A DNA stretch of 64,000 nucleotides. Source: Ascidiella aspersa. Its lineage: Eukaryota. Of this stretch, positions 55,901 through 58,900 are shown piece after piece (position 1 is the first letter of the stretch; every line of letters begins with the position of its first letter). The position numbers were made by a program, and so were the translations under genes. The notes below the pieces were generated by a model, which did no database searches, was not told the DNA's origin, and saw only the letters and a program-made list of their open reading frames with translations. The stretch is from the NCBI GenBank assembly GCA_963924565.1, contig OZ004608.1, positions 9,486,001 to 9,550,000 of the forward strand, read 5' to 3'.

Positions 55901-58900
55901 GAAACTACATCTAATGGGGTATAACGGTTGGAGGTTGCCGTGATATCAATTGACAAGAAATCAATTAAAAACCATAGGGAGATCGATTAAAACCCTTTAC
56001 ATCAGATATATAGTGTAGGTAATGTTACATTTAAGAAGAGAAGACGGAAGATTTTATCAAATCTTAACCACGTATTGGTAGATTTCATATTAATTCCACG
56101 TTGACACAACTGTATATTGGAATACGGCAACAATTTGAGCTTACTGGCATCCTATCCTAATATAAAGCACACATTCTGTCAAGCCCCATACATATTAAGC
56201 TGTACTGGTAATGCAAGTTTATCACTCATTTACCCTTACGTAATATTCACCTGCAAAAGACTCCACGACCAAACTCCGTAAATGATGAAATGCAGTAAAG
56301 GGTCGCAGCGCACCCCGCGCACATCGTCGTCAATGGTTTCTGAAAGTACAGGTTGTTTTTAATAAAATGTAGAATATTATGTAATTGTTTCTAATCCGTT
56401 GCACTGTTACCTTGTGGAGTAAGTTAAAAGTTTGTAAAAAAAAACAAACGGTCTACTGTGCTAAACTGGCTGTTTTCTATTTTAAAATGTAAAGATAGGA
56501 TTCACTTCAAATGAGAGTAGCGTAGATATAGCTCAACCGTAATAGCTAAAACACAAACTTTGGGTCGATACACTTCTTGAGGACTGTCAAGAGTTTCGGG
56601 GGCTCAAAGACAGTTTTTGGTCCTAAACGTAAATACAAAAATAGAAAAACTATTCGAAGCCAAGCGATTAGTCCATTTCATTAAACTTTTGTTTGTGTGT
56701 TTCATTTTTATAATGTGGGCTACCACCAAATATATGCGAAAGCTTCGTCAAATTTTTTTATAGTTTGAAAATCACTGCACTACAGAGTCTTTAAACTCAA
56801 GTTTCGGATCATTTGTTTCTGGCATATAGTTTTTATTTTTTTTTGGCACCTGAAACAAACTCCAAGATGTCGGCTCCCACTCCGATGAAGACCAGGAGAA
56901 GTTGCGAGAGCTGGTCGCGGGTGATCTCGCCCTTGGGAAGGAGCCACCTCCCGATCACCAGGACAAAGAGGAGGACTTGATGAAGAGCCAAGAGCCAACT
57001 CTCTGGTTGAAGTTGGTTCAACTGAGTTGTGTTAGAGAGCGATTAGATTGCAGCACTAGTTTTTTTTAAGATAGGTACATGAGTCTGGTTTTTGTTTAAT
57101 GCCGTTTACCTGAGAGGAGCTTGACGAAGTCAAGATAAACTTTTTCGAGATAGTAAAAAATGTTTGACCTGCAAATTAATATTGAACTTTTAAAAAAATT
57201 AAAACCTTTAAAACGTTGGATTAACTACACTTAAATGTGTAAGAATTTGCAAACCGATACTGTATTTTTCTACCATCGTTCTAAGATAGCATCTCATATT
57301 AATGTCAAAATAACCTCCTAAAGATGCCAAGTCTTGCTTTGCGGGTAATTAATACTTTAGACTTTAGATCAACATTTTCCTTTTCCTTTGTGGTTTATCT
57401 TTATACAGATAGTGTCACGTTAAACGTTTTATACAGTTAGTGCATTTTGAAGAGGGTTCATACAGTTAAAGTTATAGTTCTTCTTTAAAAGTTTCATGCA
57501 GTGTTTTTGTATAAAACTTAAAAAAAAACTTACAAACTGGTTCACAGTGTCCGATGTGTTCTGAAGGTACTTCACCGCATTGTTGCCAAACTCGTTGATG
57601 GAGCTCACGATGTCCTTGTCCTTGTGGCGTGTTGACGTAGTAGATGACGTCATTGTCGTGATCAATGTAGAAAACGGAATTTCCGTGCTACCCGACAAGG
57701 TTGAATTGACGGGGGAAGTAATCCGTTTTGTCGAAGTAAATTGCGTCGTTGTACTTGAAGCTAAGTATGTTGTAGTTGTGCTTGTAATTTTAGGTGGAAT
57801 TGGTGTCGGCGCATTAGTGACGTCAGCTTTTGCAGTTTTATACGATGACGTCATCGCCTTGGTCGAACTGGTTGAGGTTTTCTGGACTGTATTGGTAGTA
57901 CGAGTAGGTTGTGTAGTAGGTAAGCGCAAAGTGGGCGTTTGTGTTGTCGTTATTAGGTTTTGTGTATTTGCTGCTGACGTAGAGGCAACTGCGAAACTTG
58001 TATTTGCCATGGATAGAGTCGCCGTTGTCGGGTTCACATAATTCCCGTCATCGTTCGGAGCCACTTTAACTTCTCGGGTCGCATTCCGAACAAGTGCGCT
58101 GCCGTCTGGCGTAATGATCGATGATCGAGTGGGCGCGGAAGCACTTGATTTTGATGCTGGAGTGCCCTCGGATGTGGATAACCGACGGGGCTGGCTTGTT
58201 TGCGTAGCTGTGGACAAGACGGGCACGGTTGGCCTTTTAAGTCTGCCAGTCGTGTTTGGCGTCGCAACCAGCGTCGTGCTGCTCGGCCAAGTGCTAAGAG
58301 ATGCTCCCGGCTTTAAACTCCGCAAAGTCGAGTTTCCAGCTGTAACATTAACTTTTTGCCAAGCCGCAGCAGCAGCAACACCAGTCGCGTTTGGCGTCGC
58401 AACAAGGGTGCTGGAAGCGGCTCTGGGCTTTGAATTTTGCAAAGTCAAGTTCTCAGCTGTCTCGTTAACTTTGCGCCCTGCCGCAGAAGCAACAGTAGTG
58501 GTTGGCGTAAGCTGCGTCAAATTTCCGCTGCCTGTTGCCACAGCGTTGCTGGTAGGCGGTGACGTCGATCGCTTTCTCTTGTTCCTCCGACGCCGTGCGT
58601 TCGGGTTGCGGTCGCGCTTCCTTTTCTTGCTCTTTGGCTTTCCTCTCACCGAGTTGCCGTCGTTACCGCGGCGAAAGCGACGCAAGAGATCGAGATAGGA
58701 TGACGCGGAACTTCCGATATGATCTCGGCGGTCGTCGACGCTTCGCCGCAAGCGCGTCGTTCCGTTGACGCCGATCGCTATCGAGCTGAGTGGTGGAATC
58801 GGTGGGAACTAAACGGCGATAAGATAAATAAATCTCGGCCATGCCGCACAATCAATGCCGCATTACGATGGGCAACTGAATAGTGACATTTCCAGGAGAT

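Follow-up and report, generated by a model that had tools for sequence, protein, structure and literature searches.

The 64,000-nucleotide (nt) stretch of Ascidiella aspersa DNA analysed here (contig OZ004608.1 of assembly GCA_963924565.1, positions 9,486,001 to 9,550,000 of the forward strand; hereafter the window, in whose positions all coordinates are given) carries on its minus strand a gene of the TMEM26 family with a third exon of 425 codons. We consider it probable, at about 65%, that this gene and its relatives in one tunicate clade (clade A) encode proteins in which an enlarged, constitutively included loop between transmembrane helices (TM) 3 and 4 is likely cut by a furin-type convertase, giving two chains predicted to be joined by a disulfide and a free-ended, probably glycosylated, mucin-like stalk. 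TMEM26, a little-understood membrane protein, is a marker of beige fat, and its gene is Hedgehog-regulated. No description of the clade-A loop was found in the literature searched (few subscription papers, no supplementary files); papers there that mention both TMEM26 and furin were, judged by title and abstract opening, on other topics.

Exon 3 spans 58808-57534 on the minus strand (1275 nt, 425 stop-free codons). It is bordered by an AG acceptor and a GTAAGT donor and lies in phase 0-0 between exon 2, which ends at 59480, and exon 4, which starts at 57021, in agreement with the bounds and frame given in a first-pass annotation made from the letters alone. The TMEM26 gene model has nine exons, separated by GT-AG introns throughout, and encodes 832 aa (amino acids). 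Exons 1, 2, 4 and 7 matched the Pfam Tmem26 profile (PF09772) with 40, 34, 83 and 49 bits (cut-off 22.2), covering profile positions 4-61, 63-89, 123-174 and 247-285 respectively, and exon 6 matched weakly. Exon 3 had no match in Pfam, SEA domain included, and its first 110 residues had none in the Atlas. Profile positions 90-122 were left unmatched, indicating that exon 3 occupies the variable loop of the TMEM26 family.

Four sequencing runs (X1 to X4) were mapped to positions 52500-62400. X1 and X2 are genomic (even intron cover), X3 is a single run of spliced contigs from the same study, and X4 is a raw RNA run from another study. In X3 record 17 the end of exon 3 (57534) is joined directly to exon 4 (57021), which is followed by a gap of 89 nt, the length of exon 5, and then by exon 6. 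In X3 record 19 exon 1 is followed by the start of exon 3 (58808) at record position 524, as given by the 381+142 nt of exons 1 and 2, and the contig crosses exon 3 for 894 nt with 14 differing letters and zero gaps. The joins to exons 2 and 5 rest on this exact length arithmetic (381+142 nt; 89 nt). Bin depths on exons 2 and 4 were 8.4 and 16.4, compared to 8.5 and 16.4 from the X3 inclusion contigs alone, so that no skipped contig is required. No joint skipping exon 3 was present among 15 of the 33 joints; the contigs drop rare forms. The X4 reads (about 6% of the run read) covered exons 1 and 3 less than once, with no junction of any kind at such depth; most of them were first mates lying on the plus strand, the orientation that minus-strand RNA should give. 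Exon 3 belongs to the TMEM26 mRNA, as the first-pass annotation had assumed.

Relatives were retrieved with exon 4 (240 proteins), and the TM3-TM4 loop was measured in the 127 that had both anchors; the 113 proteins without the first anchor, many of them fragments, were left out of this measurement. The best matches were ascidian TMEM26-like proteins from Phallusia (815 aa), Clavelina (675), Ciona (546) and Styela (613), with loops of 448, 303, 190 and 231 aa respectively, compared to 460 aa here. Another 102 loops were shorter than 90 aa (median 49) and came mainly from fish, echinoderm, hemichordate and protostome-like proteins, with no named lancelet included. A tree of the loop-free core (36 rows, careful search) resolved clade A (support 98/99), a second tunicate clade, B (100/99), and their union (96/89). 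A second core tree (71 rows, quick search) gave the same split of the tunicates into sister clades. Named clade-A members come from Phallusia, Clavelina, Ciona, Styela and Oikopleura, and the last four genera are represented in both clades. The window gene sits in clade A, with a core 88% identical to that of the Phallusia protein. To judge from these trees it is a tunicate-specific TMEM26 paralogue, the result of a gene duplication in tunicates, whose clade has been kept from ascidians to appendicularians. Paralogues in Ciona are mentioned without detail in PMC3182993 (papers are cited by PMC number). Further homologue searches gained one non-tunicate protein and no new tunicate, and the sole related family seen was CECR6/TMEM121 (9 of 101 members; Atlas scores below 0.9).

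The two clades also differ in their cytosolic tails. The clade-A tail has a motif of its own, a predicted helix followed by a predicted beta-hairpin, which is conserved from ascidians to other clade-A rows and is lacking in clade B, whose tails begin with an acidic run. A profile built from five ascidian tails was run against 92 tails: it picked out another five clade-A tails from outside the ascidians, each with E <1e-12, and for clade-B and outgroup tails no E value was better than 0.008.

Exon 3 contains R-x-K/R-R, given as the furin consensus (PMC3083689, PMC8791634), at residues 19, 44, 72, 75 and 189. These five motifs compare with a mean of 0.32 in shuffled sequences (p<1e-4), and the four in the first 81 residues with a mean of 1.26 (p=0.026). 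All those quoted in the first-pass annotation are present; the one at residue 189 had gone unquoted. Four sites in residues 19-80 have a small residue at P1' (P1' and P2' being the first and second positions past the cut). In the alignment, motif 1 (RLRR, followed by S-V; 58743-58754, minus strand, as are all features of the gene) falls on the first site in each of Phallusia, Clavelina and Styela. Motif 2 (RFRR, coming after L-L-R; 58668-58679) aligned with REKR in Phallusia, RMKR in Clavelina, RIRR in Styela and RYKR in Ciona. Two sites aligned with window motifs 1 and 2 are found in four ascidians; Ciona has just the second of them. The fifth motif (RLKR, 58233-58244) is probably not cut: proline follows it directly and it is polymorphic in X1. 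Within 40 of the 340 variant rows listed, seven variants fall in exon 3, four silent and three residue-changing, and one of the latter, an R to K allele, abolishes this motif.

Of 16 clade-A loops, which range from ascidians to Oikopleura, 13 contained R-x-K/R-R (0.91 expected by shuffling), as did two clade-A fragments outside these 16 (P0011 and P0150). By contrast, it was absent from all nine clade-B loops (113-224 aa), from all 102 short loops and from the one long non-tunicate loop. Clade-A loops with just 8-10 basic residues still carry it (single-loop p 0.004-0.01). The cytosolic tails of these 16 proteins, which are also basic and in some cases truncated, had the motif at one N-terminus and three C-termini. 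The basic sites are therefore conserved in the clade. The furin core spans P6-P2', and residue volume counts at P1'-P3' (PMC3281273, PMC3083689). At the first site P1' was small or acidic in 13 of 15 proteins, and an aliphatic residue (V, A, L or I; background 0.25) stood at P2' in as many. Furin favours such residues at both positions. The six residues after the cut motif are identical in Ciona (P0005) and in clade-A protein P0006, whose loops are divergent elsewhere, which hints at constraint on the putative new end.

Sequons (N-x-S/T) in the family place the TM3-TM4 loop on the extracellular side, as the first-pass annotation had suggested. Such a sequon was found in this loop in 88 of 94 aligned family members and in any other segment in at most 15 of 94; the TM2-TM3 loop was the most basic. 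Human TMEM26 is glycosylated at N110, in the same loop, and needs glycosylation to remain at the surface (PMC5122400). Cysteines in this loop and in the TM5-TM6 loop co-vary: where the TM3-TM4 loop had an odd cysteine count, 47 of 52 proteins also had a cysteine in the TM5-TM6 loop, and where the count was even, 0 of 42 did. This is most simply read as a disulfide joining the two loops, predicted here between Cys138 (exon 2, 59510-59512), the single loop cysteine and upstream of every putative cut site, and Cys642 (exon 5, 56307-56305). The first-pass annotation had overlooked both this predicted link between the halves and the clade-wide conservation. Family sequons, cysteine parity, human N110 and the low predicted confidence of the loop model (see below) together suggest that the convertase motifs are luminal or extracellular and accessible. 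In most vertebrate rows the loop holds two cysteines and TM5 is followed by none; in tunicate and many invertebrate rows a cysteine after TM5 accompanies 1, 3 or 7 in the loop. Some rows lack cysteines in both places.

The mucin-like stalk (315 aa, 57624-58568) corresponds to exon 3 residues 81-395 and is 38% S/T and 46% S/T/P. It holds most of the 12 sequons of exon 3. Its counterpart in Ciona is predicted to be disordered, with a predicted local distance difference test (pLDDT) score below 50. Long, S/T/P-rich and, by prediction, disordered and extracellular, it has the make-up of a mucin-like domain. In residues 82-425, 11 of 24 asparagines lie in sequons (shuffle mean 7.4, p=0.083); this count is not beyond chance and was rejected as evidence of topology. 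A degenerate internal duplication (58227-58496, spacing 135 nt, about 45 aa) is one route by which the loop has grown, and exon 3 contains no tandem array besides this single duplication. A classical transmembrane mucin was considered and rejected: the core is multipass, and neither an SEA match nor tandem proline/threonine/serine (PTS) repeats were found.

The end of exon 3 is of a different kind. In the AlphaFold model of the Ciona orthologue, which has eight long helices in the membrane, residues from about 130 to 258 form a disordered loop and residues 262-290 an ordered helix (pLDDT 80-94). Its aligned counterpart is the 28-residue end of exon 3, where a conserved amphipathic helix leads into TM4 (57534-57617; moment 0.60), and a fish model also shows a helix within its short loop. 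The first-pass annotation had counted roughly 340 Thr/Ser-rich residues with many sequons after the basic motifs; the composition and the sequons hold, but the last 28 or so codons encode this helix and not mucin. As the exon ends in the family's own loop helix, exon 3 is best read as the family loop enlarged from within. Accordingly, the loop is no insertion peculiar to this gene, as had been thought: orthologous clade-A loops range from 99 to 460 aa, with little sequence identity. Exon 3 would also be the same exon as vertebrate exon 3. The annotated fish tmem26b isoforms P0037 and P0041 differ in an in-frame block of 32 aa of this loop, containing the first loop cysteine and sequons; the borders of this block lie near those of exon 3 but are not identical.

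The clade-A protein could mature as follows. The TM3-TM4 loop would be translocated to the lumen and glycosylated, and C138 would pair with C642. A convertase would then cut at a distance of 7-60 residues beyond the loop cysteine; most ascidians would have two cuts, and the unconserved spacer between these would be discarded. A doubly anchored loop is unable to extend, and cutting would free one end and turn it into an extendable stalk held by the amphipathic helix and TM4, in keeping with the earlier proposal that a mucin-like part would stay tethered. The predicted products are a 170-aa chain (19 kDa) with TM1-3, and a chain of 604-637 aa (65-69 kDa before glycans) with the stalk and TM4-8. 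In ascidians the polybasic tract at the new tip (58569-58640), which contains further R-x-K/R-R motifs, might bind sulfated matrix glycans, or might consist of spare cut sites and be trimmed. Matured by cleavage, such a protein would probably serve in adhesion or sensing at the cell surface, with its stalk coupled to the clade-specific cytosolic tail, and this tail fits a surface protein linking the stalk to an inner partner. A bolder version, which we regard as rather unlikely, is that tunicates made a two-chain receptor from TMEM26, the new N-terminus or the excised peptides acting as a tethered or released ligand that signals through the helix-hairpin tail. In that case a protein with several membrane passes would at the same time be its own proprotein.

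Several observations weigh against cleavage, the disulfide or the proposed role. Three clade-A loops lack the full motif (KHRR in P0009, RHDR in P0026 and nothing in P0007), the first site of Phallusia (RLQR) has the letters of the uncut human delta-ENaC tract (PMC8791634), and the second site of Clavelina has lysine at P1'. The P2' comparison was chosen after the data had been seen. As the rows are related, the counts and p-values given here overstate independence and are indicative only. Five proteins with an odd number of loop cysteines lack the TM5-TM6 partner. The splicing evidence consists of contigs from one run, whose study is that of the genomic runs, and the raw RNA reached less than 1x and had no junctions. 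A mouse TMEM26 knockout is reported to show no overt phenotype (PMC3182993). Fold searches with two models against PDB gave no Foldseek match at E<=0.001. The fate of the basic tip and the adhesion or sensing role are consequently the weakest parts of the proposal. The best fold-search scores (Z 9-10) were to helical hairpins and bundles only, and the family profile found nothing significant among PDB sequences; a link of the core to XK-type scramblases is conceivable.

A different purpose of the cuts was considered, namely that the protein is a membrane-anchored precursor from which a signalling peptide of 20-25 aa and a cationic antimicrobial or heparin-binding peptide are freed, much as the first-pass annotation had proposed. 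Paired sites do enclose a segment of 12-31 aa in four ascidians (25 aa here, 58668-58742, and not the 20 or so first estimated), and L-L-x-R-x-K/R-R recurs at its end in ascidians. However, the spacer is conserved neither in length nor in sequence, aligns poorly, and has an internal RR and no amidation glycine. Ciona and most of the other clade-A proteins, with a single site each, lack it; a conserved peptide between sites, as in neuropeptide or prohormone precursors, was not seen. In this species the 33-aa segment after site 2, whose net charge is +15, has RNKRKR at its end, with S as the next residue. At least 10 K/R in 15 residues were found in five ascidian loops only, and the segment is absent outside ascidians. 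It is 6% hydrophobic with a helical moment of 0.35, lacking the amphipathicity and hydrophobic face of cationic antimicrobials, contains many internal dibasic sites and has no conserved C-terminal cut site among ascidians. The post-cut peptide string of Ciona was not found in the papers searched. With an unconserved spacer and a basic tract that is not amphipathic, the release of defined bioactive peptides is a weak idea, and we judge it quite improbable. Cutting might instead relieve inhibition, the uncut loop or spacer restraining a channel, a transporter or a core controlled by trafficking, with the stalk secondary. Two furin cuts free inhibitory tracts from ENaC (PMC8791634), and Dispatched, whose sites are redundant in the fly, needs a single cut in its first extracellular loop for activation (PMC5811216). 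The core has invariant polar residues inside its membrane helices (D339 and R436, Ciona numbering), and this possibility is compatible with the maturation proposed above as far as the cut and the loss of the spacer. Nevertheless, conservation would be expected of an inhibitory tract and is not seen in the spacer, the same core exists without a site in all other TMEM26 proteins (0 of 111 clade-B and short loops), and no transporter or channel fold was matched, which makes relief of inhibition distinctly unlikely.

It is also conceivable that nothing is cut, and that a disordered loop has been enlarged by duplication and drift with incidental basic motifs, the protein staying a single chain. The loop lengths with little identity, the internal duplication, a sequon count within composition and the polymorphic fifth motif would all suit neutral growth. 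It is nonetheless very unlikely given 13 of 16 motif-bearing loops, even those with few basic residues, against fewer than one expected, nine of nine long paralogue loops free of the motif, and residues past the site that are also constrained. We likewise hold it highly improbable that regular skipping of exon 3 toggles between a mucin form and a conventional TMEM26, a switch which the first-pass annotation had thought possible. Skipping would keep the frame (407 aa), the exon being in phase 0-0, and the two fish isoforms show that an in-frame block of the same loop can differ. Yet the X3 contigs ran unbroken through both junctions, bin depths left no room for a skip contig, none of the 15 joints covered showed a skipped form (minor skipping is possible, as contigs drop rare variants), and no short-loop ascidian isoform was present among the cluster members read. 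Moreover, skipping would delete the conserved helix and leave a loop of 35 aa, which is not a conventional TMEM26.

Cleavage of the enlarged loop, as preferred here, can be set beside known systems. The window gene shares with the human and mouse members of its family (PF09772) the eight-helix core, the conserved motifs and, in the corresponding position, the loop that is N-glycosylated in human TMEM26 (N110). It differs in a loop of 460 aa compared to a median of 49, in the convertase motifs (0 of 102 short loops), the polybasic tract and the mucin-like stalk, in a predicted disulfide to the TM5-TM6 loop where most vertebrate rows have two loop cysteines, and in the clade-specific tail. Like Dispatched (DISP1), it would be a multipass protein cut by a convertase in an extracellular loop, with redundant sites in some lineages (PMC5811216); Dispatched, however, is an unrelated protein of the RND family with folded extracellular domains, and the clade-A loop is predicted to be disordered and is mucin-like. 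Paired polybasic sites between membrane helices, which arose in one lineage and excise a short tract, are also found in ENaC alpha and gamma (PMC8791634), but these are two-TM channel subunits with a conserved inhibitory tract, whereas the clade-A spacer is unconserved and many members have a single site. By analogy, clade-A TMEM26 may work like Dispatched and ENaC, although it is related to neither and is no classical mucin.

Transmembrane mucins of the MUC1 type and the fungal Msb2 type have a cleaved, S/T-rich, N-glycosylated stalk coupled to a cytosolic tail. They differ in being single-pass proteins with a signal peptide and often with tandem repeats or SEA, while the stalk here would derive from an internal loop of an eight-pass protein. 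A Lys/Arg-rich extracellular tract is shared with the long form of PDGF-A, with PDGF-B and with VEGF-A, and in PDGF-A(L) such an extension is a matrix retention motif (PMC3072383). These motifs belong to secreted growth factors, and the likeness is probably one of composition. At the level of letters the tract may be closer to VEGF-A exon 6.

Few multipass proteins, Dispatched and ENaC among them, are known to be cut by a convertase within a loop. If the reading is right, a free-ended mucin stalk made from an internal loop, with halves held by a disulfide, would be a distinct design. It would give a first mechanistic handle on TMEM26, and the topology and the disulfide rule would extend to the family as a whole. 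Clades A and B would form a cut/uncut pair of paralogues that is experimentally tractable in Ciona.

The remaining exons of the gene are as follows. The coding part of exon 1 (61763-62064), present in X3 record 19, encodes a basic cytosolic N-terminus, TM1 and TM2, and the transcript reaches 5' to 62143. Exon 2 (59480-59621), with TM3 and the beginning of the extracellular loop, corresponds to the gap of 142 nt in record 19. Exon 4 (56850-57021, record 17) encodes TM4 and TM5, and exon 5 (56251-56339), matching the 89-nt gap in record 17, encodes the TM5-TM6 loop and TM6. Exon 6 (55080-55238), covered by X3 contigs, encodes a cytosolic loop and the start of TM7, the rest of which is encoded together with TM8 by exon 7 (52769-52900). 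Exons 8 (51056-51185, the predicted helix of the clade-A tail) and 9 (49935-50032, the predicted hairpin and the stop codon) were placed by homology only, exon 8 lying outside the region mapped with the runs. Intron 7 contains a perfect 54-nt inverted repeat with a 45-nt spacer (51251-51403) that resembles a miniature transposon. Fragments of high-copy repeats lie in introns at about 54030-54200, 54750-55030 and 59836-59910, where contig depths in the genomic runs add up to more than 10,000.

Elsewhere in the window, an intronless open frame of 315 codons on the plus strand (22435-23379) encodes DnaJ and DnaJ_C domains, and two further plus-strand open frames (24164-25241) look by eye like retrotransposon integrase remnants. 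On the minus strand, two long open frames of low complexity (38953-41868; 376 and 407 codons) are probably large exons of another gene.

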